Positions 6,175 to 36,306 of a stretch of DNA of 64,000 nt are shown here, piece by piece; the stretch's first letter is position 1; every line of letters starts with the position of its first letter. The notes below the pieces were generated by a model that made no database searches, was not told the origin of the DNA, and saw nothing but the letters and a program-made list of their open reading frames with translations. Source of the DNA: Candidatus Zhuqueibacterota bacterium (GTDB lineage: Bacteria > Zhuqueibacterota > Zhuqueibacteria > Thermofontimicrobiales > Thermofontimicrobiaceae); NCBI GenBank assembly GCA_049322915.1, contig JBMOPW010000036.1, positions 64,001 to 128,000 of the forward strand, given 5' to 3'. A program made the position numbers and the translations under genes.

Positions 6175-8238
6175 ATGAGCCAGGTCAATGTCTTAAACCA
6201 AAAGTGCCGCCGATGTTACACATGCATTCAACTATGTCCGGCAAAGGCGATTAAGCGGGAGAAGGGCAACATCCAGATCATGCACGAGCGTTGCATTCTG
6301 TGTGGCAACTGCATCAAATGGTGCCCGCAGCGCGCTCTGGTGTACACCAGCGGGATCTATCAGGTGAAGGAATTCATCAATAATAATGAAAAGATCATCG
6401 CCTGCCTGGACCCGACGTTCCCTGCGGTTTTGGACGTGGCAACACCGCGGAAACTGGTGACGTCGCTGAAGAAGTTGGGATTCACCGAAGTCTGGGAGGG
6501 AGCCATTGGCGCGGAACTGATTGCCGGCAAATATCGCCAGCTTCTTCATAGCGAAACAGGTCAAACGATCATCTCCTCGTTCTGTCCGGCGATCGTATTT
6601 TACATTCAAAAATACATGCCGCAGTTGATACCGAACCTGGCGCCCATTGTGTCCGCGATGATTGCCACCGGCAGGCTCGCTCGGGAGATCAAGGGGCCGG
6701 ACTGGAAATTCGTCTACATCACCACCTGCCTGGCTCAGATGGGTGAAATGAATAGTCCTGAAGTTGCCGGCGTTGTCGACCAGGTGATCACGCTGCCGGA
6801 AGTGAGGCAATTGTTGGACGAGGCCGGCATCGATCGCACGCAGCAAGTGGAATCAAATTTTGATGGCCCGAAGCCGTACCTCGGCCGGATAATCCCGGTC
6901 ATCGGCGGACTGTATCGCACCATGGGCGAAGGCTTCGACGTGTTGATGGATGAAATCAGCGTCACCGGCGGGCGCATTCGTTCGCTGCGCGCTCTCAGCC
7001 AGTTGGTGGAGGGCCACATCGAAGCGAAGTTTTTCGATCTGGTATTCTGCGAAGGCTGCGTCGATGGCCCGTTTGTCGATCAGGAAATTGCAGTGCTGGG
7101 CCGTCGGCAAATCATTTCGCGCTACACGAAAGAAGAAATGAGCCATCAAAGCGAGACTGATTTTGAAGTCGATATGTTGAAATATAAACATGTCCCCATG
7201 TCGCGCGAATTTCGGGTGATGGAACAAAATTTACCGATCCCGACGGAGGAGCAGATCGCCGAGATTTTGAAAGCGATGGACAAAATGCCGCCGCACCGGA
7301 ACCTGGATTGTCACGCCTGCGGCTATCCATCCTGTCGAGAAAAGGCCATTGCCGTTGCTCAGGGTCTGGCTGAACTGGATATGTGTCTGCCGTACCTGCT
7401 GGAGCGCACGCGGAAGATTTATCAGCAATTGAGAAAATCGCATCACGAGTTGCAGATTTCCCATCAGGAATTGGAAAAAGCCCAGACCCATTTGATCCGA
7501 TCCGAAAAGATGGCATCGTTGGGCCAGTTAGCCGCAGGGGTGGCGCACGAAATCAATAATCCGCTGGGCACGATCACCATCTTCGCGCATTTGCTGATGA
7601 AAAATATCCCGGAGGACAACCCGGCACGGAGTGACATTCAGCTTATTATTGATGAGGCCAGCCGAACCAAAGAGATCGTTCAGGGACTGCTCAGTTTTGC
7701 GCGGGAGACCAAGCTGCGGCCCGGTTCCACCAATATCAATGATGTGCTGGAAGATGTCCTGGGATTAGTCGTCAATCAGGCCCTGTTTCAGAATATTAAA
7801 ATCAAAAAGCAGTTGGATGAAAATTTACCGACGATTTTCGCCGATTCCACCCAGCTTAAACAGGTGTTTTTGAATATGTTCCTGAATGCGGCCCAGGCGA
7901 TGTCCGGCAATGGAAAGCTGAGCTTGACCACCGGGGTGGATGCAACCGCAGGGATGATTCAGGTGAGAATACAGGACAATGGCCCGGGCATTCCGGACAG
8001 CGTGATGGCAAAAATTTTCGACCCGTTTTTTACGACAAAAGAAAAAGGCACCGGCCTGGGTCTGGCGATTTCGTACGGCATCATTCAACGCCACCACGGC
8101 AAGATAGAGGTGGAAACAGAGTTGGGAAAAGGTAGCACGTTCATCATTTTCCTGCCTGTGATCAAGACAGAAGACGAATTCAAACATCAATCAAGTATGG
8201 AGATGAACGCACCGCAGCACGAACCGGCGCAGACGTAG
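6175..8238 (+). CDS. [FeFe]-hydrogenase-like (sensory, HydS-type) domain fused to an NtrB-type histidine kinase
   Basis: N-terminal 2x[4Fe-4S] (CxxCxxCxxxCP twice). H-cluster-like motifs SSFCPA / TTCLAQMGE / [12 protein letters not shown], FeS motif [11 protein letters not shown], coiled coil, AHEINNPL H-box, N/G1/F/G2 boxes. Confidence 0.85.
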
Positions 8239-12999: not shown

Positions 13000-13641
13000 C
13001 TACATCTGCGGGACAAAAGATTGGTTCAATTGAAGTCTATAATATCCATCCTCTTGGTAGTATTTAACATCACCTGTAATACTCAACTGAAATATGTGAT
13101 TCCCTGGGGAAAAAATGTAACAAATGCTATTGTCGGGTAAAATAGTCATGGGTTCAAAAGGACCACCATCAATGGATATTTGCCATTGCAATCCAATATT
13201 GAGCCATCCGTTCCCATAATCATCACCGAAGATATCATTTACTAAATATAAGTTGGGCAAGGAACCAGGAATGGGTTCAATAGCAGATAGCGTCCATATT
13301 TCCGCGCAATTTGAGTTAATTGTCCCATTGAGGATGATGTCTATGGGCGAGGAATCGGCGACTCTGTGAATTTGACAACTTGTCCAGTCGAGACTCAGTT
13401 CGAGAGAAATATCAGATTCTGTTGAGTTGTAATCATTCATTCTTACATTTTTTGGCAGATTTTTTTTATTATTACTATTTGGGATAAGTCGATGTAACTT
13501 ATTAGGCTGAATAGCATCTTTCTCAATCAGATTTTTGGGTGGTTTTGTAGGTCGTGTTAATTTTTGTTGTGCAGGGGAAGAATTTATCAATGATATTAAC
13601 GCAATACAGACTATTGAACTGATTTTAATAATTTTTTTCAT
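13000..13641 (-). CDS. Secreted hypothetical protein, paralog of 15449-16171 (putative minor pilin-like subunit)
   Basis: Signal peptide. Shares blocks with the 240-aa protein, including the C-terminal DGYYxL strand. Confidence 0.65.
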   Translation of the reverse strand: MKKIIKISSIVCIALISLINSSPAQQKLTRPTKPPKNLIEKDAIQPNKLHRLIPNSNNKKNLPKNVRMNDYNSTESDISLELSLDWTSCQIHRVADSSPIDIILNGTINSNCAEIWTLSAIEPIPGSLPNLYLVNDIFGDDYGNGWLNIGLQWQISIDGGPFEPMTILPDNSICYIFSPGNHIFQLSITGDVKYYQEDGYYRLQLNQSFVPQM

Positions 13642-13691
13642 AATTGAATTTCTACAGTTTATTTATCTTTGATTTAAATAATCTTCAGATT

Positions 13692-15383
13692 TTATTTGAT
13701 AGAAACCAACTGGTATGTCATATTTGGCTTTAGGTTTTCATGATAATAAATACTCAAAATTATTCGATACTTTCCTGGTTTAAGATTAGGAAAGGCAACC
13801 TGAAATTTTCTATCATTATTGGGCAGAAGATAACTGAATTTATCTCCGAACTCTTTTGCCTGATCAACGCGATCAAATACGCCAGGCGCCAGTTCCTTTT
13901 CCAAAATTATATTTCCACTCGCATAAGAATGAATGTTGCCCATATTCCTGGCGGTAAATTCGAAGATGTGCAAAGCAGCCGACTGATTGCTTTCTTTTCT
14001 GACTAATATTGTATCTACTTCTATATCATATTTCAAGTCCTGCTTGGTAGATAGCGCTAACAATTGCGTTCGAGATGCTAAAAATTCAGTCGGCAGATTT
14101 TTGGGTATATTCTCCTGATCAAAAATAATTGCCCCGTAAAATGCGCCATCAATTTTTTCAGGTGAAATAATATTCAATTTGAGGGCTTGAGATTTTCCAG
14201 GATAGATCTCTACATTTTGATCAGACAATGTAATCCAATCTACGCATGATCTTTTTTGTATCTTCTTATCTGAAGATAAGATCGGTTGACTATAACTATC
14301 CAGGTTCCACTCCATTTTTCGTGGATGGAGATATAATGTATCTTTTGATGTGTTTTGTATTTGAATGGCGATATAAGTTTTTCCCCCTGGTGTAATTGAT
14401 TTTTGTAGAAATGGATGTCGTATGAGAAATCCTGGTGATGAGGCGCGAATCAACTTTTCCAAATCATCGGATAATGCACCAGGATATGCCTTGCCCTGAT
14501 AAACCGCGAACGGGAAGTTTTTTGACATTCCTGGGCATTCAGGTATTTGAAGCGATATTCGCATCAAATAGTATCCGTCTGAAAGAGCATTTTGTCCTTC
14601 TGCATAAAAGTTACGTACTTTTCCGGGAAGGAGATAACCTTTTCCTGCCAGCATAGGGCTTGACTCTATATGAGTCCCAATTTCACTCCAAAAACTTACT
14701 CTGCCTGTTACTTTTGTGTGTATATTCCCTTTATTGCTTACAGGCATGATAACCTCCCAACCGTTTTTCGCGTTTGGATTAAATATCGGGACAGATGTAT
14801 CAGCATTTTTTTGACCTTTTGGAAAAACGAACAACGTGTCGGGCGTAATAATCGGTTTATTTCTACTTGAAGGGACCGTTAACAATAATACTACTCTAGC
14901 TTTGCTTTTCAGAGCAATAGCAGATCCTTTTAAATCGACTTTTTCAGATTGAAATGGAATATCAATTCCCTCAAAACTCCCCTCGATCAAAGCGTAATAA
15001 CCACCCTCAGCGTCCCTGGGGACATCAATGGTACCGCACAACTCGATCGTTTCATGCGCATTAATTATTGTGTCCCTCGGCGAAATTTTTATCCAGGAAC
15101 CACATCCGCGAGTGTAGCTGCTATCGGCAATGAATGGTTTGCCGTCAGGGGTTAGATCCATATTGTACACTGCAAATTTAGCAGGTGCGATATTATCGCC
15201 GACATTTACAACCGTAAAAGTGAATTTTCCTTGTTGACCACGAAATGTTTTTGTTTCTTGAATTGGGGGAATTATTTGTACAACAGACTGAGCCTGTAGT
15301 TCTAAAGTATAAAGTACGATTGAAATCAATATAAATAGTATCGATTTACATCTGATTTGTTTGATGGATTGAAAGTTATACAT
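13692..15383 (-). CDS. Secreted protein with two tandem PapD-like/DUF916-like chaperone modules
   Basis: Signal peptide. Internal duplication: CGSWIKISP...VPRDAEGGYYALI / CVDWITLSD...SPEKIDGAFYGAII, and NKGNIH...YLLPG / NMGNIH...YLLPN. Confidence 0.6.
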   Translation of the reverse strand: MYNFQSIKQIRCKSILFILISIVLYTLELQAQSVVQIIPPIQETKTFRGQQGKFTFTVVNVGDNIAPAKFAVYNMDLTPDGKPFIADSSYTRGCGSWIKISPRDTIINAHETIELCGTIDVPRDAEGGYYALIEGSFEGIDIPFQSEKVDLKGSAIALKSKARVVLLLTVPSSRNKPIITPDTLFVFPKGQKNADTSVPIFNPNAKNGWEVIMPVSNKGNIHTKVTGRVSFWSEIGTHIESSPMLAGKGYLLPGKVRNFYAEGQNALSDGYYLMRISLQIPECPGMSKNFPFAVYQGKAYPGALSDDLEKLIRASSPGFLIRHPFLQKSITPGGKTYIAIQIQNTSKDTLYLHPRKMEWNLDSYSQPILSSDKKIQKRSCVDWITLSDQNVEIYPGKSQALKLNIISPEKIDGAFYGAIIFDQENIPKNLPTEFLASRTQLLALSTKQDLKYDIEVDTILVRKESNQSAALHIFEFTARNMGNIHSYASGNIILEKELAPGVFDRVDQAKEFGDKFSYLLPNNDRKFQVAFPNLKPGKYRIILSIYYHENLKPNMTYQLVSIK

Positions 15384-15404
15384 TTTTTTCTCTTATTTGT
15401 AATG

Positions 15405-15439
15405 AAAAAATTCAGCCAGCTGGGCTCTGGCTGATTTTT
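15405..15439 (-). terminator. Intrinsic terminator/attenuator directly after the 240-aa gene
   Basis: tcagccag...ctggctga stem flanked by A-run and T-run. Confidence 0.65.
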
Positions 15440-15448
15440 ATCAATGAT

Positions 15449-16171
15449 TTATAAGCTCGGAGATGGGCACCCTGCCATAGTTAATGAATAATATCCATCG
15501 GCCTCATGATAGATTAAATTAAAAGTGCCACGGAATTGATACCAATGGTCACAAGGTTGATCTATTAAAAAAGTAATTTCCTGATTAGTTGTTGCAGGAG
15601 TCCATGCTGTAGCAGTTCCACCACCGATAGCTAATCCTGTTCCCCATCGATAATCCCAAGTGATGGGTATATCTCTTGCAGTGTTATTGTTGATCCAGCC
15701 CCTATCTGCGGTTCCAAGAACGTCACGACGAAAATAGAGTTTATCAAGTGGTTGATCGCCAGCTACGAGAGATACAAATAATGGATTATTGCTTTTAAGA
15801 GTACCATCAATTGTGAACGTAATCTCCTCTGCCAGGTTGCCAAGTCGGTGCCATTGATAATGTGTGTATTGATAGGTTTGCACCATATTCATTTCAATCC
15901 ATAATTCCAGCGTGATTTCAGCATAGTCGATATATTGTAAACCACCATCCCAGGAGACAACCCAATCGTTGCCAGTTATAGGATTGCTATGATGGGGGTC
16001 AAATAAAGCAAGACCAGAGCTATAACTACCGGTATAGCTATTCCAATTCGTCGGATTCATACCCCAGCCTTCTTGATAGGTCCCATGAGCAGGTGGTTCC
16101 TGAGCGAATGCAGTGCCGACAAATGCAAAGGCAGCAATCAGCATCATGATGAATGAAAATTTCTTAATCAT
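15449..16171 (-). CDS. Secreted hypothetical protein (putative major pilin-like subunit)
   Basis: Sec signal peptide (AFA-Q), strong AAGGGAG RBS, beta-rich sequence, C-terminal ADGYYSLTM. Confidence 0.7.
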   Translation of the reverse strand: MIKKFSFIMMLIAAFAFVGTAFAQEPPAHGTYQEGWGMNPTNWNSYTGSYSSGLALFDPHHSNPITGNDWVVSWDGGLQYIDYAEITLELWIEMNMVQTYQYTHYQWHRLGNLAEEITFTIDGTLKSNNPLFVSLVAGDQPLDKLYFRRDVLGTADRGWINNNTARDIPITWDYRWGTGLAIGGGTATAWTPATTNQEITFLIDQPCDHWYQFRGTFNLIYHEADGYYSLTMAGCPSPSL

Positions 16172-16350
16172 TGCATTTCTCCCTTAATTAGTTTATATTA
16201 TTATCGTGGATAAAGCCTTCAGCTTTACCACAACCCTCGGGCTGCCGCCTGTATAAGGAGGCAGCCCCTTCCTTTTTTATCCGAAACCTCGGATGATTTA
16301 TCTTTAATACCTCATGTACCCAGCCCGCGAGTTCATTCATCAGAACGAAA

Positions 16351-17976
16351 TCACAGGACATGAGGCGTAATAAAGATCACTAATTCTGACTCGACCTCTT
16401 CTGTTTCTGTTTTTCCGAACAGGTAGCCCAATACTGGAATTTTTCCCAGGACCGGCACTCTGCTTTTATAGGTTTGAGTCTTATTCATTCGGAGCCCGCC
16501 GATCGTGATGGTTTCACCATCTCCGACTCTTACAGTTGTGTTCGCGGATCGTCGACTGATTTCCGGTAATCCATTTGCTCCCTCACCTATGACATCATCT
16601 ATCTGGGGTTTCACACTCACCGTGATGAACCCTGTAGAATCTGCATACGGCGTGATCATCAATTGAATCCCGGATTGTATGGTTTCTAATCGATTCATAT
16701 AACCAAAATAATTTCCTGTTTCACCTGCGGTTATCATAAAATACTGTTCTTTGAGAGACTGAAAAATAGCGGTTCGGCCATTCATAGTTCTTACGCGTGG
16801 CGTCGCCTGAATTTTCACGACACCAGCATCTGACAGCGCCCTCAAGGAGGTCGCGAGATCATAGGCTTTGTCTCCGATTTTTAGAGCTGTCCGCAGATAA
16901 TTCAGTGCGAATAATGGATCTTCTTTCATAGTAGGAATGATGACAAGGGAGGCTTCTTTGTCATTCCAACCGAGGCTGCTTAAACTCCAATCAATCCCGA
17001 GTTTTTGGATATCGGAGGTGTAAAACTGAACAACCACAACTTCTATCTCGATCTGTTTTACCGGGGTATCAATGGATTTTAAATCCTGTTTAATTCTTTT
17101 TGCATAGGAAGGGGGAGCTGTAATGCAAACAGTGTTCGAGCTATTGGTAGCGCGCACAAAAATTCGAAAACTTTCAGGTAGTAATTGAATTGCATCCTGT
17201 GCCATAATATTTGAAAGTTGCAAAATTGATGTTTCACTTAGCGTATTAAAAGATGGGCTATCAAGATCAATGGAACCAACATAATACGTTCCTTTTTTTA
17301 AAATATGTACAAATCCATTTGAGAAAAGGATATCTTCCAATACTTTTAAAAATGGAACTTCATTCACTTCATGGGTTACGATTCCTTGAACTGTATTGTC
17401 CCAAACGATTGGAATGCCAGTTGCTTGTGAAATATCCAGTAAAACCTGGCGAATATCGGTTTCAAACCAGGTGTTCGTGATGAAAATATCTGAATGGTCG
17501 GGAGACACATCTTTTGTTATTTTTTCAGTATTAGTCGAGTCCTGAAAAGTCGGTTTTTGAATTTGTAGAGATGGTTGATTCAAAAAATCTTCAACTCGCT
17601 TTTGAAATGATGAAGCCTCACTATCAGTTAAAGAACTGGATGCTTCAGCCAATTCTAAAGCGACTCGTGCATCTTCATTTTTTCCCATTCCAATTAGTGA
17701 TTTAGCAGCGAGAATATATAATGTTGGGTTATATCTAAAATTTGGATTTATACTTAATAGGTGCTGTATCTGTGAAAGACTCTGAGAAAATAATCCATCT
17801 TCTGTTAAATTCTCGATGTTTCTTATAGAATTTTGGAACAACAAATTTCGTTTAACTTCATTGGGATAGCTGTCCGTTTGCTTTTTCAAGTTATTTATAT
17901 TTGGACTGCAACTAAAAAAAGTAACAATTGAAAAGAATGAGGAGGTAATTAATAAATAACGAAAAGGAATTTTCAT
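16351..17976 (-). CDS. Lipoprotein secretin (GspD/PilQ family) with N-terminal TPR-like region
   Basis: Lipobox FFSC; STN-like ETDIRQVLLDISQATGIPIV; NTVCITAP..DTPVKQIEIEV; ATPRVRTMNG; GETITIGGL; VPVLGKIPVLGYLF; ELVIFITPHVL. Confidence 0.92.
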   Translation of the reverse strand: MKIPFRYLLITSSFFSIVTFFSCSPNINNLKKQTDSYPNEVKRNLLFQNSIRNIENLTEDGLFSQSLSQIQHLLSINPNFRYNPTLYILAAKSLIGMGKNEDARVALELAEASSSLTDSEASSFQKRVEDFLNQPSLQIQKPTFQDSTNTEKITKDVSPDHSDIFITNTWFETDIRQVLLDISQATGIPIVWDNTVQGIVTHEVNEVPFLKVLEDILFSNGFVHILKKGTYYVGSIDLDSPSFNTLSETSILQLSNIMAQDAIQLLPESFRIFVRATNSSNTVCITAPPSYAKRIKQDLKSIDTPVKQIEIEVVVVQFYTSDIQKLGIDWSLSSLGWNDKEASLVIIPTMKEDPLFALNYLRTALKIGDKAYDLATSLRALSDAGVVKIQATPRVRTMNGRTAIFQSLKEQYFMITAGETGNYFGYMNRLETIQSGIQLMITPYADSTGFITVSVKPQIDDVIGEGANGLPEISRRSANTTVRVGDGETITIGGLRMNKTQTYKSRVPVLGKIPVLGYLFGKTETEEVESELVIFITPHVL

Positions 17977-18302
17977 AATAACCTGTCATTTGAGAGTTTA
18001 AAATAATTGATATAGTAAACGGAATCTTCAGGGAATTATTAGCTAATGAATTATTATATCGAATCTTAAATGGACCCTGAATCAAAATTTACAATCTTGG
18101 ATACTCTTTTTGATCTATAAATATCAATAGAATAACTATTCTATTGAAACAACATTGTGTAAATATTATAGCTAAAAATAAAGTCGCATCTCAGATCGAG
18201 ACTGTAATAAGATGTCATGATTTCGAAAGTAGTCTGTCAAAGGTAATTTACAAGGAGTGTGGAGTCAGAAAAAATGAGATTTCCCCCTTTGTAGAATAAC
18301 AG

Positions 18303-18659
18303 CTATATTTTTACAATCATATTATGAAAATTTTTCATATCGAAAACAATGGCAGCAATTCCGAGATGGGTATACTCATGAATTTGAAAATTGGCATTTT
18401 CTGGTGCAAGAAGAATTTTTTTTATATCGACATATTTTTTACTATTCAATTTTTTCAGCATTTTTATTAATTTTTCATGATCAGGTAGATTTGAGGACTG
18501 TGGAATCCTGGCTACTAATAGATCAAAATTTTTTTTTTCCATCAACTTAAATGCTGTTTTGAGATTATCTGTCGCTAAAATTTCATGACTCAGGGCAAAT
18601 TTTGTCTGTAGATCGCCGATGAATTTTTGATCACGGTCTATGAGCAAAATTTTTTTCAT
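18303..18659 (-). CDS. Atypical (pseudo-)receiver domain protein
   Basis: KKILLIDRD...FDLLVARIP: REC-like pattern lacking the phosphoacceptor Asp. Confidence 0.55.
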   Translation of the reverse strand: MKKILLIDRDQKFIGDLQTKFALSHEILATDNLKTAFKLMEKKNFDLLVARIPQSSNLPDHEKLIKMLKKLNSKKYVDIKKILLAPENANFQIHEYTHLGIAAIVFDMKNFHNMIVKI

Positions 18660-18737
18660 AATGGATTTTTGAATGGATATGTTTCATTCTAAGTTCAATT
18701 TGATTTAAGAAAATAAAAGTTGAATTAATTGACATAT

Positions 18738-18753
18738 TTCAAAGATTGTGCCA
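18738..18753 (-). promoter_or_regulatory. Sigma54 -24/-12 promoter
   Basis: Minus strand TGGCAC-AATCT-TTGAA (TTGA variant of TTGC), ~80 bp upstream of 18659 and next to a sigma54 activator gene. Confidence 0.7.
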
Positions 18754-18779
18754 ACAATTATGAAAAATAATTCATATGT

Positions 18780-18792
18780 TAACCAATTGATT
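18780..18792 (-). promoter_or_regulatory. IHF-binding site
   Basis: Minus strand AATCAA-TTGG-TTA matches WATCAANNNNTTR, lying between the UAS and the -24 element. Confidence 0.55.
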
Positions 18793-18836
18793 TATATAAA
18801 ATGGGAAAAATGCGGCATGCAGAATATCGTAAAAAG

Positions 18837-18875
18837 TGTCGTATTTTAGTGACATGAAAGTTGTATTAATGCAAC
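18837..18875. promoter_or_regulatory. Putative tandem upstream activator sequences for the NtrC-family regulator
   Basis: Two adjacent imperfect palindromes, tgtcgtattttagtgaca and gttgtattaatgcaac, ~85-120 bp upstream of the -24 element. Confidence 0.5.
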
Positions 18876-19029
18876 ACATATGTTAAAATAGTAAAATCGC
18901 TTTTGAAAAAATTAAGAGTCAAATGCAACTACCATTCTATCAAATTAGACTAACATTTCTAATAGTACAAAAGCGAAAAAGGCTCGGATGGTCAGTTTGG
19001 TAGCTTATTATTGGGTACTTTTTTTCCCT

Positions 19030-20388
19030 TTATTTCAATTCCAATTCTTTCAACATCCGATGAAAACTGGAGCGATTGATCCCCAGCGCATTGGCGGTTT
19101 CGCTGATGTTGTTGCTGTACTTCTCCAGCGCGCGCTGAAAATATACCTTGCGGAAATCATTCAATAGCTCGTGCTTGGCGTCTTCGTACGGACGGTCGAA
19201 AAGCCATGCCGGATACGCAGCGTTATGGGAAGCATTGGGTAAGAATATCTCATCACCGCCGATGATCTCATTGTTCTGATGCATGACCGTCAATCGCTCG
19301 ATGAAATTTCTCAGCTCCCGAATATTGCCGGGCCAATGGAAGGAATGGATTTTCTTTAATGCAGCTTCGTCGAATTGCAGGGCCGGCCGCTTTGCAGCAT
19401 TGGCAAAATGTTTCAGGTAAATATCGGTCAAAATGGGGATGTCCTCGATGCGCTCGCGCAGCGGAGGAATAGTAATTGTAACCACATTGAGTCGGTAATA
19501 CAGATCCTCGCGAAATCGCTTTTGCGCGACCAGATCGATGAGCTTCTTATTGGTCGCGGCGATGATGCGCACCTGCACGCTGAGCGTTTCAGTCCCACCG
19601 AGCCGCAGGAAGGTTCGGTCTTCGATGGCGCGTAAAATTTTAGCCTGAGATTCAATCGGCAGTTCGCCAATTTCATCGAGAAAAATGGCGCCATTGTTCG
19701 CCAGTTCCAGCTTGCCTTTGGTCTGTTCGTGGGCGCCAGTGAAGGAGCCTTTTTCATGACCGAAGAATTCGCTTTCGAACAGTTGCGGCGATAATGAACT
19801 GCAATTCACCGCGACGAACGGATTGTCCTTTGATTTGCTGCGCCGATGAATTTCCCGAGCCGCGATCTCCTTGCCGACTCCGGATTCGCCTTCGATTAAA
19901 ACGGTCGCATTGGTTTGAGCCACTTTTTCAATGTCCCGGAGAACTTTTTTCATGGACGGCGCCTCAGCCACCATGGTATGGAATTCTCGTTCACATTGTT
20001 CTTTGTACAACATCTTCCAGGTCGTCTGCTCCATCTGCCGCTCGATGATCAGTTTGAGCGTTTCAATATTGGGCGATTTGGAGGTGTAATGCAATGCGCC
20101 CAGTTTCATGGCCTCGACGGCCGTGGCCACATCAGCAAAATCCGTAATCATAATGACCGGCAGATCCGGGTGCATTCCTTTGATCTGCTGAAGAATTTGC
20201 AGCCCATTCAAGCTGCGACCCAATTTTAAATCCAGCAAAACCACGTCCGGCAATCGGTTTTTCAGCGCGCGCAGGCCGTCCCGGCTATTGTGCGTGATGG
20301 TCAGGTTGAAATAATTATCAGAGAGAATTTTAAACGTCTCACAAAATTTGTAATCATCGTCGATGAGCAGGGCATTGAGTTTGGGCAT
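19030..20388 (-). CDS. Sigma54-dependent NtrC-family response regulator (REC-AAA+-Fis HTH)
   Basis: REC with LLDLKL, GESGVGKE Walker A, GHEKGSFTGA, FLDEIGE, FREDLYYRL, WPGNIREL, C-terminal HTH. Confidence 0.95.
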   Translation of the reverse strand: MPKLNALLIDDDYKFCETFKILSDNYFNLTITHNSRDGLRALKNRLPDVVLLDLKLGRSLNGLQILQQIKGMHPDLPVIMITDFADVATAVEAMKLGALHYTSKSPNIETLKLIIERQMEQTTWKMLYKEQCEREFHTMVAEAPSMKKVLRDIEKVAQTNATVLIEGESGVGKEIAAREIHRRSKSKDNPFVAVNCSSLSPQLFESEFFGHEKGSFTGAHEQTKGKLELANNGAIFLDEIGELPIESQAKILRAIEDRTFLRLGGTETLSVQVRIIAATNKKLIDLVAQKRFREDLYYRLNVVTITIPPLRERIEDIPILTDIYLKHFANAAKRPALQFDEAALKKIHSFHWPGNIRELRNFIERLTVMHQNNEIIGGDEIFLPNASHNAAYPAWLFDRPYEDAKHELLNDFRKVYFQRALEKYSNNISETANALGINRSSFHRMLKELELK

Positions 20389-21145: not shown

Positions 21146-24100
21146 CTACAACCGCCTCAGCCTGATTAAAAACGTGGCGCCCCTGTTTTTGCCGCTCCGG
21201 GCGATTTGTATTTTTCCACCATATTTTTCAACCGTCTTCTTCGAATAGAAAAGACCAAATCCACTGGATCGTTCGGCTTTGGTTGTAAAACCTTCCTCGA
21301 AAATAGTCTCATGCATTTTCGAGGGTATGCCGACGCCATTATCTGTGATTTCAACGAAGAAGTACTGATCGGTTTGGTAATGGCCAATCTGAATGTGAGG
21401 TTCCGGCACATCGAGTGTCGCGCGAATGGCATTGTGGACCAGGTTTTCGAATATTGGAGCCAGTTCGCCGGGCTTGATACAGACATTCATTTCTGCGCCC
21501 GGCGGTATGGGTGGATTCAATTCGATGAACTGTTTTTCCTGATCGTGTAAGTCGACCACTAAATCGCGCAGCAGCTCGTAGGCGTTACACGAAAAAAAGC
21601 TGACAACGCTGCTGTTGATGTCCCTGATGTTGACGCGAATCTGGTCAGTGAGGCGATAGACATTGTTCCAGATTTCTCCGGTCATACCTTTTTTCATCGC
21701 CAGTGCGATTTTTATTTTATTCAAATTTTCAGACAGGAATAGTAACTGTCGGTTGAGCTCCTCGCCCTGATGCTGCTTGATTTGTGTTTCACTCGCTATA
21801 TGAGCAATGTGCTCGATTTCTTTGTATACCAGGTGGTAAAATCCATTGATGGTTTCAGTGAGTTTCTGACTGGCATTATCGCCGATCGTTTCATTCGGTG
21901 GAATGTTCACGCTGAACAACTGGAGTTGATTTAAGAAAGCAGCAGCCCAACTGCCATGGTCAAATATGCGACAACTCAGCAGGAGTTCCTCTGCCAGACG
22001 TTCCTGATTTGTTTTCAATGTCATCTTTTTTTCGATAAAAATAAATCCCATAAAAACAATAAGCGACAGAGCCGTCGGCAGGATATGGGCTTCGAAGGGA
22101 TTCTTCTCGCGCATGAGCAACGAAATGAGCAGGTAAATAAACAGTGGGAATAAGACAGCATATTTATTGAGCCGGCGTTCGGACATGCGCTGGTGAACCA
22201 GGTATTTTAGCGTCAGGATGAAAACAGCGATTAATATAATAAGGATCAGGCCTATGTTCTGGTACGTCCTGGCTTTGGCGTAACGCAGTGCTGCCCGTTT
22301 ATGAAGCGTCAGCCACTTGCTGAATCCGTTTTGTTCCTCAAGGATCAAGTTCTGTCCGGGGGACAGGTTGGTTCGCGTGATAACGATACCGCTGGGAAAC
22401 CGGATTTTCAGGTCGAACAGACCGGCGGCGTCAGCGCCGAAATGAATCGTGGTCGAATTCATGCAGCCGTAGCCGTAGCCTCCATTCACTTCCCGCATGC
22501 CCAGCAAATGTTCGTGTTCATCGAGGTGACCGGCGCGATATATGTACGCCCTGGCGCCGATGGCGTCCCGATTGCTTTTTGTGCCGATGAGTTTTATCCT
22601 GATAAAACATGCATTGTTCAACTGATTGACGTAATAAGTACTTGGAACATCGTTCCGGGCCACGTACAGATCAATATCGCCATCATTGTCCGGATCTCCA
22701 CAGGCCACTCCGTTTGAATAGCAGTATTGCTTTATTTTGAATGTCTCGCTATCGCGAACAAATGTTTTATTGCCGCGATTTTTAAAGAAGAGATTCATTC
22801 CGCGATTGGTAAGAAACAGGTCGAGATGACCATCATTATCCGCATCGAAGAAACAGGCGCTGCTGGTGCGGCTGGAGTCCAGCAGTCCGGCGGATTCGGT
22901 GATGTCGGTGAATCGGCCGGCGCCATCATTTTCATAGAGGCGATTGGTCAACCCCATGTTGCACACGTAAAGATCCAGATCGCCGTCGTTGTCGAAATCG
23001 GCGAATGCAGCGGAACTGCTCTTAGCCAGAGAATCCGGCTCCGGGGGAAGCCATTCCGCGGTCATCTCTCTGAAAAAGGGTATATGGTGATTGGAGCGAG
23101 TACCTTCATTGCGATAAATCCGATTCCGAACGCCGTAGCAGGGAACCATCAAATCCAGATCGCCATCATTATCCACATCGCCAAACGTAGCGCCTTTGCC
23201 GCTTCGCTGTGTGGTCAAGCCGGCCTCATGGGTGACTTCTCTGAATTTTCCAAAGCCATTATTGAGGTACAACATGTTGGTTGTATCTTCATTGGTCACA
23301 AATAAATCGACATCGCCATCATTGTCCACGTCGCCCCAGACGCCGACTTGCGAGCGGGTATGCTCGCTGAGGACGCCTGCTTCAGCGGCAATATCTCTGA
23401 AAGTCCTGTTGGAGAGATTTTCATACAGGAAATTTGGCGCGTACATACTGGCGATGTACAAATCCCGATCACCGTCATTGTCCATATCAACAATTGTAAC
23501 TCCCATGTCGAAAACTACATCGCCCTCTTTTGAGCGGGTTGTCCCAAGCAGATTCAGATGCTCAGCGCCATCAATAAAATCAAACCAGTGCTTGAATTTT
23601 ATGTGGCGATTCCCATTGAACAGGAGGAGATGATTTTTGCCAGCAGTGTTGATGGCATAGACATCATCATCGTTGTCGCCATCGATATCGCCCATAGCGA
23701 CGCCATATTCATCTGTACCTCCGACGAAGGGACTCACTTGATATTGTGATCTGGACCGGGCTGGTTCTTTAACCTTCCGATGCACGTATGTTACGGCGCC
23801 ATCCGATGTGAACAGCAACACGTTCGACTGAAATTTATTATCTTTGTTCATTGGCCAGAGGATCTCGCGCCGATTATCCGGGAGTGCGACTAATGCAGCA
23901 TTCCGATCTACTAAAGTTATGCCCCCACGATGGACAGGTAATGACGTTTCCAAATCTGGAAAAATAACTTCAAGGGTATCCTTGACAAACGCTGTAATTG
24001 GCATTCTCTCACATGTATCGCATCTTATTCTGATGATGAGTGAGTCATCGGTAGTCAGTCCCCAGGCTAAAGTGTCGTTTATCATGAAGAGATGAGGAAG

Positions 24101-24724
24101 AGACCCTGTGTGCTGCATGTTAACCTGCCATCGTTCACCATCCCAATGGAGTAAAGTGGCATTGTCTCGATATTTGCAAATAGCCCAGCCGCAATTTGGA
24201 TTCAACATGCAGAGGCTGACCACATGTCCGAAGGTGGGACAGGGAACCAAATGCCACTGCGATCCGTCGAAGTGAATAATTTCGCCCCACTGGCAACCGG
24301 CCCAGATATTCTCGGGCGATACAAAAGCAATTTGTGAAATCGGATCTGTGTTGGGAGTAGGATAATCGGTGATGATGCCGTTTCGTTCATGCCGGATGAA
24401 ATAGGAGTACTTTTTTTCATCATAACAGGTGAACCAGGTTTCATCCGCGGAGAGAGGCAGCGCCGAAAAGATGGCCAAGCCATTCTGGGCAGTGACAACT
24501 TCCCACAAACCATTTACAAACTGATAGGGGCGAGGGTTGCGACCCGTCTCCTGGAACAGCCAGCCATTTGCCGAATCGATAAAAGCGGCATAAGGTGAAT
24601 AGCTCTGAAAGGGAATCCGGACGAATGTCCAATCTTCTAATCCCTGCTGATGACCGCTGCCGGCTAATGCGAAATTCACCAGTAATAGCAGGAAACCAAA
24701 TGTCAGAACGATTTTTCCCCGCAA
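21146..24724 (-). CDS. Membrane sensor histidine kinase with extracellular FG-GAP/VCBS propeller and ASPIC/UnbV (CRTAC1-like) domain
   Basis: Signal peptide; many DxDNDGDxDL repeats; SNRDAIGAR...IHFG ASPIC/UnbV motif; three TM helices; atypical H-box (FDHGSW); ENLVHNA, DNGVGI, GFTTK, GFGLF ATPase boxes. Confidence 0.85.
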   Translation of the reverse strand: MRGKIVLTFGFLLLLVNFALAGSGHQQGLEDWTFVRIPFQSYSPYAAFIDSANGWLFQETGRNPRPYQFVNGLWEVVTAQNGLAIFSALPLSADETWFTCYDEKKYSYFIRHERNGIITDYPTPNTDPISQIAFVSPENIWAGCQWGEIIHFDGSQWHLVPCPTFGHVVSLCMLNPNCGWAICKYRDNATLLHWDGERWQVNMQHTGSLPHLFMINDTLAWGLTTDDSLIIRIRCDTCERMPITAFVKDTLEVIFPDLETSLPVHRGGITLVDRNAALVALPDNRREILWPMNKDNKFQSNVLLFTSDGAVTYVHRKVKEPARSRSQYQVSPFVGGTDEYGVAMGDIDGDNDDDVYAINTAGKNHLLLFNGNRHIKFKHWFDFIDGAEHLNLLGTTRSKEGDVVFDMGVTIVDMDNDGDRDLYIASMYAPNFLYENLSNRTFRDIAAEAGVLSEHTRSQVGVWGDVDNDGDVDLFVTNEDTTNMLYLNNGFGKFREVTHEAGLTTQRSGKGATFGDVDNDGDLDLMVPCYGVRNRIYRNEGTRSNHHIPFFREMTAEWLPPEPDSLAKSSSAAFADFDNDGDLDLYVCNMGLTNRLYENDGAGRFTDITESAGLLDSSRTSSACFFDADNDGHLDLFLTNRGMNLFFKNRGNKTFVRDSETFKIKQYCYSNGVACGDPDNDGDIDLYVARNDVPSTYYVNQLNNACFIRIKLIGTKSNRDAIGARAYIYRAGHLDEHEHLLGMREVNGGYGYGCMNSTTIHFGADAAGLFDLKIRFPSGIVITRTNLSPGQNLILEEQNGFSKWLTLHKRAALRYAKARTYQNIGLILIILIAVFILTLKYLVHQRMSERRLNKYAVLFPLFIYLLISLLMREKNPFEAHILPTALSLIVFMGFIFIEKKMTLKTNQERLAEELLLSCRIFDHGSWAAAFLNQLQLFSVNIPPNETIGDNASQKLTETINGFYHLVYKEIEHIAHIASETQIKQHQGEELNRQLLFLSENLNKIKIALAMKKGMTGEIWNNVYRLTDQIRVNIRDINSSVVSFFSCNAYELLRDLVVDLHDQEKQFIELNPPIPPGAEMNVCIKPGELAPIFENLVHNAIRATLDVPEPHIQIGHYQTDQYFFVEITDNGVGIPSKMHETIFEEGFTTKAERSSGFGLFYSKKTVEKYGGKIQIARSGKNRGATFLIRLRRL

Positions 24725-26117: not shown

Positions 26118-27371
26118 ATGCAAACAAGGCTCCATTCCATACGCTTCATTGAAGAGAAATGCATTGGCTGTGTAACCTGCATTCGGGCATGCCCCACCAA
26201 AGCCATTCGGGTCATTCACAATAAAGCCAGAGTCAACAGCGATCGTTGCATCGATTGCGGCGAATGCTACCGCGTTTGCCCCCATGAGGCCATTGTCTCG
26301 GTCACCACGCCGCCCGCCGATTTGAAAGATTTTGAATGCACCATTGCTTTGCCTTCGCCCGTCATTTACAGTCAGTTTGACCACGATATCATGCCCAACC
26401 AGATTCTATTAGCCCTGAAACAATTCGGTTTTGACTATGTATTCGACGAGGCCTGGGATTGCGATCTGATGGCTGAAGCGCTGCAGGAATACCTCGATAC
26501 CACGAGTGGGCCATTCCCGAAAATTTCCATCACCTGCCCGGTTGTGGTGCGCCTGATTGCCAGGCTCTATCCCAATCTCATCAGCCACCTTGTCAAAATG
26601 GAGATCCCGCGCGAGTCCGCCGCAAAAAAAGTCAGAGAGAAAGCGGCGCAAACCCGGGGGATCCCGCCGGACAGGGTCGGCGTTTTCCACATCACACCCT
26701 GCCCGGCGAAGATGATTTCAATCAATTCGCCTGTGGGGACGGACAAATCCAATCTCAATGGCGCCATTGCCATCCGCGATATCTACGGCCCGCTGCTCAA
26801 TATTCTCAAGCATATCGAAGAGAACGAAATTCTACAACTCTCCAGTGGCGTCGGCATTGCCTGGGCTATAAGCGGCGGCGAAATCATGGGGATACGTCAG
26901 GATAACTGTCTGGCCGTGTCCGGTGTGCAGGATGTCATTCAGGCGCTCAACGACGTCGAAGCCGGTAAATTCAAGGACACGCTTTTATTAGAATGCCTGA
27001 TCTGCCCGGATGGCTGCATTGGCGGCCCGCAGACCGTCCAGAACAGGCATATTGCACGGCGTCGCGTTCGAATGCTCATTAAGATGTTTGGCGATCGCAC
27101 CCGCGTCAGTCGGGATATGATGCTGCGGCTTTACCACCTGGGCTATTTCGCGCTCAAAAAGGAAATCACTGCCATGCCGTTCCCGCCGTTGGACCCGGAC
27201 AGGAAAAAAGCAATTCAAAAGGCGAAGCAGCGGGAGGAAATTTTAAAAACATTGCCCGGGAAAAATTGTTCGGCGTGCGGCGCGCCGGACTGCCGCGCGT
27301 TCGCTCAGGATGTGGTCATAGGCGAACGAACCATCGATGAATGCGTCTTTTTACAAAAAGACCAATCGTAA
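26118..27371 (+). CDS. [FeFe]-hydrogenase-like protein (regulatory, group C/D type) with 2x[4Fe-4S] and C-terminal FeS domain
   Basis: Two ferredoxin motifs; ITCPVV / TPCPAK / ECLICPDGCIGGP; LPGKNCSACGAPDC. Confidence 0.85.
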   Translation: MQTRLHSIRFIEEKCIGCVTCIRACPTKAIRVIHNKARVNSDRCIDCGECYRVCPHEAIVSVTTPPADLKDFECTIALPSPVIYSQFDHDIMPNQILLALKQFGFDYVFDEAWDCDLMAEALQEYLDTTSGPFPKISITCPVVVRLIARLYPNLISHLVKMEIPRESAAKKVREKAAQTRGIPPDRVGVFHITPCPAKMISINSPVGTDKSNLNGAIAIRDIYGPLLNILKHIEENEILQLSSGVGIAWAISGGEIMGIRQDNCLAVSGVQDVIQALNDVEAGKFKDTLLLECLICPDGCIGGPQTVQNRHIARRRVRMLIKMFGDRTRVSRDMMLRLYHLGYFALKKEITAMPFPPLDPDRKKAIQKAKQREEILKTLPGKNCSACGAPDCRAFAQDVVIGERTIDECVFLQKDQS

Positions 27372-32410: not shown

Positions 32411-32847
32411 GATCGCTTCTTTCTTAGTGCTCACCGCCATTCCCGGCATCATTGGCGGCATTGGATTGCTGAAGCGAAAGAGCTGGGCGCGCATTCTCAT
32501 CCTCATCGTTGCAGCGATCGATTTATTGGATTTTCCCCTGGGGACAGCGCTGAGCGTGTATTCATTCTGGGTGTTGTTGCAGGATGAATCGGCAAAAATA
32601 TTTTCAGCCGAAAATCAAAAAACAGTGATTGTGTAGCAGACTCATTTTAACACGTCGAGGTAGGTTTTGGAATCATTAAAAATTCTTGTGATTGATGACG
32701 AACCGGGCCTGCGCGAAGGCTGCCGGCGCATCTGCGAAGCAGAGGGATTTCAGGTCATGGTTGCGCAAAATGGTCGCGCCGGTTTGGATATTGCAGAGAC
32801 GAATAAAATCGATTGTGCGCTGATCGACCTGAAATTGCCGGACATGG
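32408..32847 (+). repeat. 440-bp direct repeat, copy 2
   Basis: Matches 30068-30507. Confidence 0.95.
32409..32636 (+). pseudogene. 5'-truncated duplicate of membrane protein gene 29916-30296
   Basis: Translation identical to the C-terminal 75 aa of that protein. Confidence 0.85.
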
Positions 32848-33566
32848 ATGGCCTGGACGTGCTGCGCACCATTCGGAGCGTTCATCCCGAAATACTCGCC
32901 ATTATTATCACCGGCCACGGCTCCATCGAAATCGCCGTGGAGGCCATCAAATTGGGCGCATACGATTTTCTGTCCAAGCCATTCACGCCGGATCAACTGA
33001 TGAAAATTGTCAACAAAGGCCTGAGCGAAAAAAAGGAGCGTCAGGAAGGGCTGGCATTGAAACAGGACCGTCGCGAACGCGCCGTGGACGATTTGAACAG
33101 CATGACCCTTGTCGATGAAATTATGGCGCGTTACAACTACCGCAATTCCGCGCTCATTGCCATGCTTCAGGATATTCAGAAACAGTTCAATTACCTGCCC
33201 CAAAACTTGCTTCGATATGTTGCGCTGAGGTTAAATGTCCCACTGCCTCGCGTTTACAGTATTTCCACGTTTTACAAAGCGTTCAGTCTCAAGCCCCGGG
33301 GACGCCATCTCATCGACGTCTGTCTGGGAACAGCGTGCCACGTGCGCGGCGGCATGAATATCATGGAACGATTGGAGCGGGAACTGGGCATTAAAAATGG
33401 CGAGACCACCTACGATGAAAAATTCTCGGTGAAATCGGTGCGCTGCGTGGGCTGCTGCGGACTGGCCCCGGTCATTGTCATTGACGAAGAATTTCATGGC
33501 AAACTGAACCAGGAGCAGATTCCCAAGATACTTGCCAGGTATCAGACGGATTCCTCCACCCCATAA
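32667..33566 (+). CDS. Response-regulator receiver fused to a NuoE/HydC-like [2Fe-2S] subunit
   Basis: REC (VIDDE, LIDLKLP, KPF) followed by LIAMLQDIQ..YLP, TFYKAF, VCLGTACHVRGG, RCVGCCGLAP. Confidence 0.9.
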   Translation: MESLKILVIDDEPGLREGCRRICEAEGFQVMVAQNGRAGLDIAETNKIDCALIDLKLPDMDGLDVLRTIRSVHPEILAIIITGHGSIEIAVEAIKLGAYDFLSKPFTPDQLMKIVNKGLSEKKERQEGLALKQDRRERAVDDLNSMTLVDEIMARYNYRNSALIAMLQDIQKQFNYLPQNLLRYVALRLNVPLPRVYSISTFYKAFSLKPRGRHLIDVCLGTACHVRGGMNIMERLERELGIKNGETTYDEKFSVKSVRCVGCCGLAPVIVIDEEFHGKLNQEQIPKILARYQTDSSTP

Positions 33567-35663: not shown

Positions 35664-35673
35664 AGGAATGACC

Positions 35674-36306
35674 ATGATTTCGATCATCATAAACGACCAG
35701 AAATTCGAAGTGCCGGAGAATCTCACGGTGTTGGAAGCAGCGCGCGAACATAACATTCATGTGCCCACCCTGTGTTACCACGAAGCGATTCTGCCGGTGG
35801 GGGCGTGCCGATTGTGCATTGTTGAAGTCGAGCAAAATGGCCGAACGCGTACCGCAGCCTCATGCGTGACGCCGGTGGCGGACAATATGATTGTGCGAAC
35901 CAATACGGAAAAAATTATCCGCATGCGCCGCGTGCTGGTGGAACTGCTGCTGGCGCGATGCCCGAACCTGCCGGTGCTGCAGAATCTGGCCAAGGAAGTG
36001 GGGCTGAAAACGGTGCGCTTCAAAAAGGAAGCCGAAGACTGTTTTCTGTGCGGCCTCTGCGTGCGGGCGTGCAGCGAAATTGTCGGAGTCAATGCCATTG
36101 GTTTCGGCGATCGCGGCGTGAACAACAAGATCGAGCCGCCGTTTTTGAAAGCATCCAGCGCCTGCATCAGTTGCGGAACCTGCACCACCATCTGTCCGGC
36201 CGGCACGTTCCATCTGGAGCGCGTGGATCGGCTGACCAGCCTGCACCACTTCGCCGAAGACTATCGCGCCGAGAAGTGCCGCATCTGCGGAGAACATTTC
36301 ATGTAA
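35674..36306 (+). CDS. NuoG/HydA N-terminal-like FeS subunit (no H-cluster or Mo domain)
   Basis: VPTLCYH...GACRLC.VE, ASC, CFLCGLCVRAC, CISCGTCTTICP; start ATG at 35668 or 35674. Confidence 0.85.
   Translation: MISIIINDQKFEVPENLTVLEAAREHNIHVPTLCYHEAILPVGACRLCIVEVEQNGRTRTAASCVTPVADNMIVRTNTEKIIRMRRVLVELLLARCPNLPVLQNLAKEVGLKTVRFKKEAEDCFLCGLCVRACSEIVGVNAIGFGDRGVNNKIEPPFLKASSACISCGTCTTICPAGTFHLERVDRLTSLHHFAEDYRAEKCRICGEHFM

Follow-up and report, generated by a model that had tools for sequence, protein, structure and literature searches.

Organization of the locus

A cassette of four co-oriented open reading frames (ORFs) was found in the genome of a Candidatus Zhuqueibacterota bacterium (GenBank assembly GCA_049322915.1), where it encodes, in this order on the minus strand, a secretin of 541 aa, a small secreted protein of 240 aa (class A), a tandem chaperone-like protein of 563 aa, and a second small secreted protein of 213 aa (class B). 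The cassette lies in a stretch of 64,000 nucleotides (contig JBMOPW010000036.1, positions 64,001 to 128,000 of the forward strand) that was analyzed as a whole and is referred to as the window; all coordinates are collected in Table 1. Four co-oriented, AT-rich genes had been described in an earlier, sequence-based note on this DNA (the original prediction), and their order, their coordinates, and their low GC content all proved correct. The GC content is 0.34–0.45 over positions 13001–18000 and 0.29 over 18001–19000, while the flanks have about 0.48–0.55.

The AT-rich island as a whole (13001–19000, GC 0.29–0.45) is made up of the four cassette genes and a 118-aa ORF upstream of the secretin gene, and the adjoining genes for an NtrC-type activator and a sensor kinase have the GC content usual for the genome. 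This contrast fits a foreign unit that was inserted beside resident regulators. The remainder of the window carries genes for anaerobic redox metabolism, fatty-acid synthesis, and housekeeping functions.

Fold and lineage of the tandem protein

Within the 563-aa protein, one half can be aligned to the other at E 3e-8, with their motifs in register (CGSWIKIS/CVDWITLS, GGYYALI/GAFYGAII, NKGNIH/NMGNIH, and GYLLP/SYLLP), in agreement with the internal duplication and the shared motifs that had been read from the translation. An AlphaFold2 model built from a 27-row alignment (mean predicted local distance difference test score, pLDDT, 82) comprises a signal helix and four beta-sandwich domains, which form two-domain modules at about residues 30–290 and 316–563. 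The only helix in the model is the signal peptide (residues 5–29); the protein ends in ..YQLVSIK with no C-terminal helix, and neither an anchor nor a type IX secretion system (T9SS) tail nor repeats beyond the two modules were found in it.

In a structure-distance comparison, the best match of the model was a WxL-interacting protein (WxLIP) of Enterococcus faecium (9i25_C, Z 16.6, 228 aligned residues, root mean square deviation 5.6), followed by WxLIP 9i1y_A (Z 15.5), and both were aligned to residues 316–563. Of the 50 highest-ranking rows, 40 were chaperones of the chaperone-usher pathway (Z 11.2–12.5; SafB, Caf1M, YadV, CfaA, SfaE, CsuC, FimC, DraB, FaeE, PapD, CupB2, and EcpB). They aligned almost end to end (176–198 of 189–212 residues), either onto ~30–290 or onto ~318–560, so each half of the model is one complete two-domain chaperone-like module. 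The orthologs at two related loci, L023 and L028, clear the cut-off of the family PF06030 (DUF916, WxLIP_PGBD) with 28.5 and 29.8 bits vs. 27.3. That the 563-aa protein is chaperone-like is therefore well supported, by the fold of the model and by way of the PF06030 matches of the orthologs. PF00345 (PapD_N) and PF02753 (PapD_C) gave no match to it at E ≤ 0.1, and a profile search of PDB sequences returned nothing for the tandem protein. From the "PapD-like/DUF916-type chaperone" named at the outset, the chaperone fold and the WxLIP/DUF916 lineage were thus retained, whereas an assignment to the PapD family was not, as there is no PF00345 match.

Each module has a long beta-hairpin in the model (residues 127–170 and 414–445), and the tip of the first one is poorly ordered (residues 144–153 below pLDDT 50). 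The strand-donating loop of WxLIP is described as likewise poorly ordered and as becoming the donated strand (PMC10599100). The long hairpins of both modules correspond to this loop.

The small secreted proteins

The cassette contains a second duplication, as class A (240 aa) and class B (213 aa) are paralogous (27% identity in 153 aligned columns, BLASTP E 3e-8). Their signal peptides are of the ordinary Sec type, and no class III prepilin leader was found in the subunits. Homologs of class A fall into 105 clusters, none of them with a Pfam domain, and the few that carry an organism name are from Zixibacteria. The class A N-terminus consists of the signal peptide (..TAFA before QE) and a conserved segment (PPAxGxYxxGWGMNPxNW), and the C-terminal motif HxxDGYYxLxxAGCPxPxL closes an immunoglobulin (Ig)-like domain (residues ~91–240), which is a beta-sandwich in the AlphaFold2 model (pLDDT 82 overall, lower at residues 21–50). 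Class B keeps the sandwich and the conserved C-terminus (DGYYRLQL..VPxL), and the conserved N-terminal segment is replaced in it by a variable low-complexity linker, so that the N-termini differ among class B proteins.

With the class A model as query, CfaB, the major pilin of CFA/I, was the sole Foldseek match at E ≤ 0.001, and many chaperone-usher subunits ranked below it. A distance-based second look placed the pilin domain of CfaE first (Z 8.0), and when the model was compared, independently of Foldseek and without bias, with 48,161 chains, this domain and CsuA/B led the matches (Z 7.8). The top 50 rows of this wide search held 22 chaperone-usher pilus subunits and four other strand-donating fibers (TLP-1b, Hyper2 tube, cannulae, and TasA). 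The beta-sandwich model and these rows agree with Ig-like rather than non-Ig subunits, as had been expected. For the "two pilin-like paralogs" of the original prediction, the paralogy is secure, whereas the likeness to pilins is weak (best Z 7.8–8.0); the models are suggestive of a weak resemblance to chaperone-usher pilins. The Atlas model of the subunit was poor (pLDDT 0.34), and its top row, a "fimbrial protein" cluster with a TM-score of 0.32, was not counted as evidence.

A terminator-like hairpin (8-bp stem with 5 GC pairs, then ATTTTTTC) lies directly 3' of the class A gene. Terminator-like sites are usual after major pilin genes. In this region 6 such sites were counted vs. 4.3 by chance, which is not above chance, and the position of the single site is suggestive only.

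The secretin and its genomic partners

The 541-aa protein was identified as a secretin by PF00263 (132 bits vs. a cut-off of 27.5, E 2.2e-38, residues 380–541), with Secretin_N narrowly above its cut-off (29.3 vs. 28.2 bits, E 1e-06) and a GspD-like N0 domain below its own cut-off (22.3 vs. 27 bits, E 1.2e-4). The resulting layout, N0 at 172–230, N1 at 249–308, and the secretin domain at 380–541, is shared in its general plan (N0/N1-type domains and a C-terminal secretin domain) with GspD of the type II secretion system (T2SS), PilQ of type IV pili (T4P), SctC of the type III secretion system (T3SS), MshL, and phage pIV. In contrast to these, the protein stays far under the NCBIfam equivalog cut-offs of GspD (147 vs. 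351.35), PilQ (141.8 vs. 284.35), SctC (128.3 vs. 238.45), and MshL (128 vs. 250.2). A signal peptide that contains a lipobox-like FFSC precedes an extra N-terminal region of ~150 aa, for which a tetratricopeptide repeat (TPR) likeness is a lead only (the sole TPR match is weak and comes from another member of the clade, TPR_6 E 0.013).

In a tree of 28 secretins, all cassette secretins form one clade of 17 rows (SH-aLRT support 99). Two rows of this clade that had first been classed as "other" also adjoin tandem genes, one belonging to a second four-gene cassette and one to the third variant described below. Consequently, all 17 secretins of the clade, i.e., every one with an assessable locus, adjoin a tandem chaperone-like gene, and the co-occurrence of the homologues with secretins, on which the original prediction depended, is complete (17/17). 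The window secretin shares the lipobox-like FFSC with its same-genus ortholog, and such a Cys occurs in just 4/17 N-termini of the clade, so "lipoprotein" is not a conserved trait; from the proposed "lipoprotein secretin" the secretin remains.

The lack of an usher, an ATPase, a platform protein, and a prepilin peptidase in the island, which had been noted from the ORF translations, was borne out by Pfam. None of the families for usher, T2SSE, T2SSF, or prepilin peptidase was found in 38 ORFs of the window (7, and a further 31 of at least 150 aa). The same families and PapD were equally lacking in 69 ORFs that flank the cassette at 10 homologous loci, none of which encodes an usher or a T2SS/T4P component. 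No pseudopilin and no phage gene was found in the window locus or the 10 homologous loci, and the cassette loci differ in all these respects from T2SS, T4P, T3SS, and phage machines. A filamentous-phage origin of the secretin was ruled out on the lack of phage genes. The usher family PF00577 had 0 matches in the whole window genome (96% complete).

This genome has four secretins and 5 T2SSE-family matches. Each of the three other secretins has a PilB/GspE-family ATPase less than 10 kb away, whereas no ATPase is encoded on the contig of the cassette secretin and the ATPases of the genome are on other contigs.

Conservation, linkage, and variants

Searches within the own genome with the subunit profile found just the two cassette genes, and the tandem protein was found once. 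Among 61 relatives, the tandem protein was matched in 10 genomes (full-length in 7), and the subunit family is present in 11/167 genomes of the phylum. A scan with one genome per species gave 12 related loci. The secretin gene, 1–3 copies of class A, and the tandem gene lie side by side in 10 of these (L035–L044), and 9 loci (8 of L035–L044 and L034) have a class B gene behind the tandem gene. Contigs are cut at the start of L034 and at the end of L039 and L044, and L045 is a distant single-module relative. Chance adjacency was rejected because the gene order is kept down to 25–28% identity of the tandem protein. The flanks vary between loci, which marks the cassette as the conserved unit. The closest four-gene orthologs are not among the matching genomes of the window's own phylum, which, together with the low GC content, suggests that the window's genus obtained the cassette by horizontal transfer.

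Two further arrangements were recovered (Table 1). All four loci with enough sequence to judge in distant phylum-mates have a six-gene variant, which encodes a ~430-aa secreted protein (no Pfam family), a ~264-aa single-module chaperone-like protein, a subunit, the tandem protein, a ~400-aa lamin-tail domain (LTD) protein with a T9SS sorting domain, and the secretin. The LTD/T9SS protein was seen in L023–L025, and in L028 a 360-aa ORF without a Pfam match takes the same position. The secretin of this variant is shorter (416–432 aa) and lacks the N-terminal extension. In a third variant (L062), five small secreted paralogs precede the tandem gene and the secretin; four of the five share the signal peptide MMKKL(I/M)LIALAMLVAVGAFAQ, four carry an N-terminal (L/V)TIxPY strand, and none belongs to a Pfam family. 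These paralogs look more classical-pilin-like than the window subunits, and their genome also holds two four-gene cassettes.

The tandem profile matched 242 representative clusters at E ≤ 1e-30, 3,673 at E ≤ 1e-10, and 10,812 at E ≤ 0.001. Among the best 150 matches, most span both modules, evident fragments aside, and one is named candidate division KSB1. Look-alikes of the tandem protein in the Atlas include single- and tandem-module clusters, some of them partly with PF06030, PF11797, or PF00345 (leads only), and they are most frequent in Planctomycetota, Bacteroidota, Deinococcota, Gemmatimonadota, and Candidatus Saccharimonadota. The Planctomycetota look-alikes are tandem-sized (526–597 aa), and a Saccharimonadota cluster has 1,450 members. 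The superfamily may extend far beyond Bacillota.

Comparison with known systems

A recent preprint (bioRxiv 10.64898/2026.10.17.759780, 17 October 2026) describes ElrE, a DUF916/DUF3324 protein of Enterococcus faecalis, as a membrane-anchored donor-strand chaperone that nucleates a pilus, based on genetics, pull-downs, and cryo-electron microscopy. As presented there, ElrE primes WxL-domain pilins, which then polymerize by donor-strand exchange, and the chaperones among its Foldseek matches (CsuC, CfaA, Caf1M, and EcpB) were matched by the window protein too. The preprint also reports a screen of 4,698 genera (PF06030 and PF11797 in one protein and a WxL pilin at most 10 kb away), in which the WxL chaperone-pilin system was found in Bacillota only. 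A screen by those strict Pfam criteria would miss the system in the window.

The cassette resembles the WxL/Elr pilus in the lineage of the chaperone (by the two WxLIP matches and by PF06030 in the orthologs), in a chaperone gene that adjoins small secreted beta-sandwich subunit paralogs, and in the lack of an usher and an ATPase. The window organism has two membranes and a dedicated secretin, whereas the WxL pilus system is described in the same preprint as having "no secretion pore to thread" (bioRxiv 10.64898/2026.10.17.759780). The window chaperone is tandem-duplicated and soluble, without the C-terminal membrane helix that the preprint gives for 96.7% of WxL chaperones, and the cassette has no detected PF11797 or WxL (PF13731) and no LPxTG or sortase anchor.

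With the chaperone-usher pathway the cassette shares the two-domain, L-shaped, Ig-like fold of the periplasmic chaperone, weakly pilin-like subunits, an operon that includes a gene for an outer-membrane pore, and an outer membrane without an ATP source. It differs in that the chaperone is a tandem duplicate outside PF00345, the genome has no usher, and the pore is a multimeric secretin instead of a monomeric 24-strand usher barrel. TasA/TapA, archaeal bundling pili, and cannulae (CanA) have a weak match to the subunit fold (Z 5.8–6.5), but these systems lack both a PapD-like chaperone and a secretin, and no sequence relation to them was detected. In a full-text search of a limited literature corpus, a chaperone of the DUF916 kind coupled to a secretin was not described.

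Possible function of the cassette

Every secretin known to us is the outer component of a machine powered at the inner membrane (T2SS, T4P, T3SS, or filamentous phage), and the only known exit for donor-strand fibers of double-membraned bacteria is the usher. We give an even chance to the proposal that the cassette encodes a chaperone-assisted surface fiber that is exported through its dedicated secretin, with neither usher nor ATPase. Both subunit classes would reach the periplasm via Sec, where, by donor-strand complementation, each WxLIP/PapD-like module would hold one unfinished Ig-like subunit with a strand lent by its long F1-G1 hairpin. The subunits would then be joined strand-for-strand, and the thin growing fiber would leave the cell by the secretin. 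Folding energy could drive the assembly, as it does in chaperone-usher pili, in which case a motor would be unneeded. Class A might be the repeating (major) subunit, and class B, without the conserved N-terminal segment, might cap or anchor the fiber. By holding two subunits side by side, the tandem chaperone might replace the two chaperone-subunit (catalytic) sites of the usher. The gene content, the two duplications, the chaperone fold, the DUF916 homology seen in the orthologs, the strict tie to the secretin, and the lack of an usher or ATPase in the loci are observations; we infer that the chaperone binds the subunits, that these polymerize and leave by the secretin, and that the subunit classes differ in role. 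The hybrid pathway of chaperone and secretin put forward by the original prediction is partly supported; none of the three refuting outcomes named with it was observed, and its mechanism keeps the status of a proposal. Somewhat more tentatively, with chances that we put slightly short of even, the cassette may represent a third outer-membrane route for donor-strand fibers, a "chaperone-secretin pathway" in which the secretin takes the place of the usher.

A number of results weigh against a fiber of this kind. The 240- and 213-aa proteins match no Pfam family, Fimbrial (PF00419) included; WxL (PF13731) was detected neither in them (E ≤ 0.1) nor in their orthologs (E ≤ 1), and the best subunit match in a profile search of PDB sequences was at chance level (E 0.39). 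Z never reaches 8 in the wide structural search, where values of this size can mirror a common arrangement only, and Foldseek gave its single match at E ≤ 0.001; the pilin fold was hence counted as suggestive. Furthermore, the conserved N-terminus of class A is Gly/Pro-rich, unlike a classic alternating donor strand. The 563-aa protein itself scores 16 bits on PF06030, below the cut-off of 27.3, and PF11797 (HBD/DUF3324) had zero matches in any tandem or single-module protein. PilB/GspE-type ATPases are encoded elsewhere in all 10 other cassette genomes examined (2–7 matches each), so help in trans may be available, and we know of no secretin that works without inner-membrane partners. A complex prediction of the tandem protein (residues 31–563) with the 240-aa subunit (24–240) gave an ipSAE of 0.00 in two runs without controls and counts neither way. 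Nor does a search of sequencing runs, which listed no RNA run with the sequence and one DNA run that may be the source sample, bear on the proposal.

Three other explanations were weighed. The same linkage and chaperone fold would also be expected if the tandem protein were a periplasmic holdase or pilot for two Ig-like proteins, which would reach the secretin as monomers or small complexes and then be released or displayed as adhesins or lectins. Secretion without a fiber would suit the weak pilin likeness and a class A N-terminus without an obvious alternating donor strand, but every characterized protein among the two-domain chaperone-fold matches (chaperone-usher and WxLIP) serves polymerizing subunits. 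In addition, several paralogous subunit genes with a terminator after the first one are the usual layout of pilus operons, and the cassette loci have multiple subunit paralogs, the first of which is followed in the window by a terminator-like site; we regard this explanation as unlikely. A still lower probability is assigned to the 541-aa protein being an extra outlet used in trans by the T4P or T2SS of the genome, with its three neighbors as substrates or accessory parts. The dependence of known secretins on inner-membrane partners speaks for such a use, as do the T2SSE-family matches of the window genome and those of the 10 other cassette genomes. Against it stand the ATPases close to each of the other three secretins, the separate clade of the cassette secretins with its complete tie to the tandem gene, the variable flanks, by which the unit travels alone, and the ordinary Sec signal peptides of the subunits in place of class III prepilin leaders. 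Likewise, one cassette genome has four secretins and two ATPase-family matches, the latter ~1.4 Mb away from the cassette.

The 563-aa protein could, finally, be a structural Ig-repeat surface protein or adhesin that resembles chaperones at the level of the fold only. Foldseek alone returned mostly multi-Ig proteins for its model (hydin-type ASH repeats, transglutaminase, and complement), and its sub-threshold PF06030 score points the same way. In the structure-distance search, however, two-domain chaperones outrank generic Ig repeats and are covered over nearly their full length, the orthologs pass PF06030, and the protein has no anchor, T9SS tail, or third module. This explanation appears the most improbable of the three.

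Regulatory neighborhood and other nearby genes

The 118-aa ORF upstream of the secretin gene has only a faint receiver-domain likeness (E 0.03–0.06) and is 82% identical in the same-genus locus L022. A sigma-54-like element lies ~80 bp upstream of this ORF; the pattern was counted 32 times in the window vs. 37.5 by chance, i.e., not above chance, and the element is thus a lead only. Counts in a sigma-70 pattern scan were not above chance either. The activator encoded further upstream matches Sigma54_activat at E 2.4e-68, and the sensor kinase matches FG-GAP_3 (E 3.5e-45) and HATPase_c (E 1.5e-17), with a 49% identical ortholog at the same position in L022. This upstream synteny (118-aa ORF, NtrC-type activator, and FG-GAP sensor kinase, on the same strand) is shared with the same-genus genome only. 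The NtrC-type activator is a possible regulator of the cassette, and the FG-GAP sensor kinase may be the sensor of the same regulatory unit.

Table 1 Coordinates of the cassette, its variants, and neighboring features. Positions without a prefix refer to the window, those with an L number to the related locus of that number
Feature	Position	Strand	Basis or content
Secretin, 541 aa	16351-17976	minus	PF00263 match
Class A subunit, 240 aa	15449-16171	minus	Sec signal peptide, Ig-like domain, 105 homolog clusters
Tandem chaperone-like protein, 563 aa	13692-15383	minus	Internal duplication and model fold
Class B subunit, 213 aa	13000-13641	minus	Class A paralog
Terminator-like hairpin and T-run	15412-15434	minus	Between class A gene and chaperone gene
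AT-rich ORF, 118 aa	18303-18659	minus	Faint receiver-domain likeness; upstream of secretin gene
Sigma-54-like -24/-12 element	18738-18753	minus	TGGCAC N5 TTGA; pattern scan, one mismatch
NtrC-type sigma-54 activator	19030-20388	minus	Receiver, AAA+, and HTH_8 domains
Sensor kinase, 1192 aa, FG-GAP/ASPIC ectodomain	21146-24724	minus	FG-GAP_3, HATPase_c
Six-gene variant	L023:6529-13897		
Six-gene variant	L024:7147-14707		
Six-gene variant	L025:6791-14173		
Six-gene variant	L028:8680-16128		
Third variant	L062:3358-9773		Five secreted paralogs of 150-171 aa, 539-aa tandem gene, 568-aa secretin
Giant putative adhesin, 2,670 aa	L035:13242-21254	opposite to cassette	Laminin_G_3/Big_13
Giant putative adhesin, 2,646 aa	L043:13616-21556	opposite to cassette	He_PIG/cadherin/PKD
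[FeFe]-hydrogenase large-subunit-like	6175-8238		Fe_hyd_lg_C and 4Fe-4S domains; fused to HisKA and HATPase_c
[FeFe]-hydrogenase large-subunit-like	26118-27371		Fe_hyd_lg_C and 4Fe-4S domains
Receiver fused to NuoE-type domain	32667-33566		Response-regulator receiver, thioredoxin-like [2Fe-2S] ferredoxin domain
NuoF-like and 2Fe-2S/4Fe-4S subunit genes	33855-36306		
Protein of 369 aa	47004-48113		T9SS sorting domain

At two of the related loci a giant putative adhesin is encoded beside the cassette, and FG-GAP repeat proteins are encoded near the cassette in L040, L041, and the window. Elsewhere in the window, the fusion of one of the two [FeFe]-hydrogenase-like proteins to HisKA and HATPase_c makes it a hydrogenase-like sensor histidine kinase, and the gene for the receiver fused to a NuoE-type domain lies upstream of the NuoF-like and iron-sulfur subunit genes. 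The 369-aa protein is encoded amid heterodisulfide-reductase-like and FlpD-type redox genes, and its T9SS sorting domain indicates that the organism has T9SS cargo.

Implications

Chaperone-assisted donor-strand fibers are a known principle, and the analysis suggests that the pairing with a secretin is the new part. The work on the Gram-positive DUF916 protein came as unexpected support for the interpretation as a chaperone-built fiber, the central mechanism of which we infer here from genes and models. If the chaperone-secretin pathway is true, double-membraned bacteria would have a counterpart of the WxL/Elr pilus of Gram-positive bacteria, previously thought to be confined to Bacillota; the pathway would also be an evolutionary link between WxL/Elr and chaperone-usher pili, and its pore would be the first secretin to work without an inner-membrane motor. 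The family of the tandem protein is large and wholly unannotated. As a conserved mobile four-gene unit of a secretin, a DUF916-type chaperone, and pilin-like subunits, the cassette would extend the WxL chaperone-pilin principle past Bacillota to uncultured phyla (Zixibacteria and KSB1, by the names of the sources) and, if borne out, would add a new pathway for the assembly and export of surface fibers in double-membraned bacteria.

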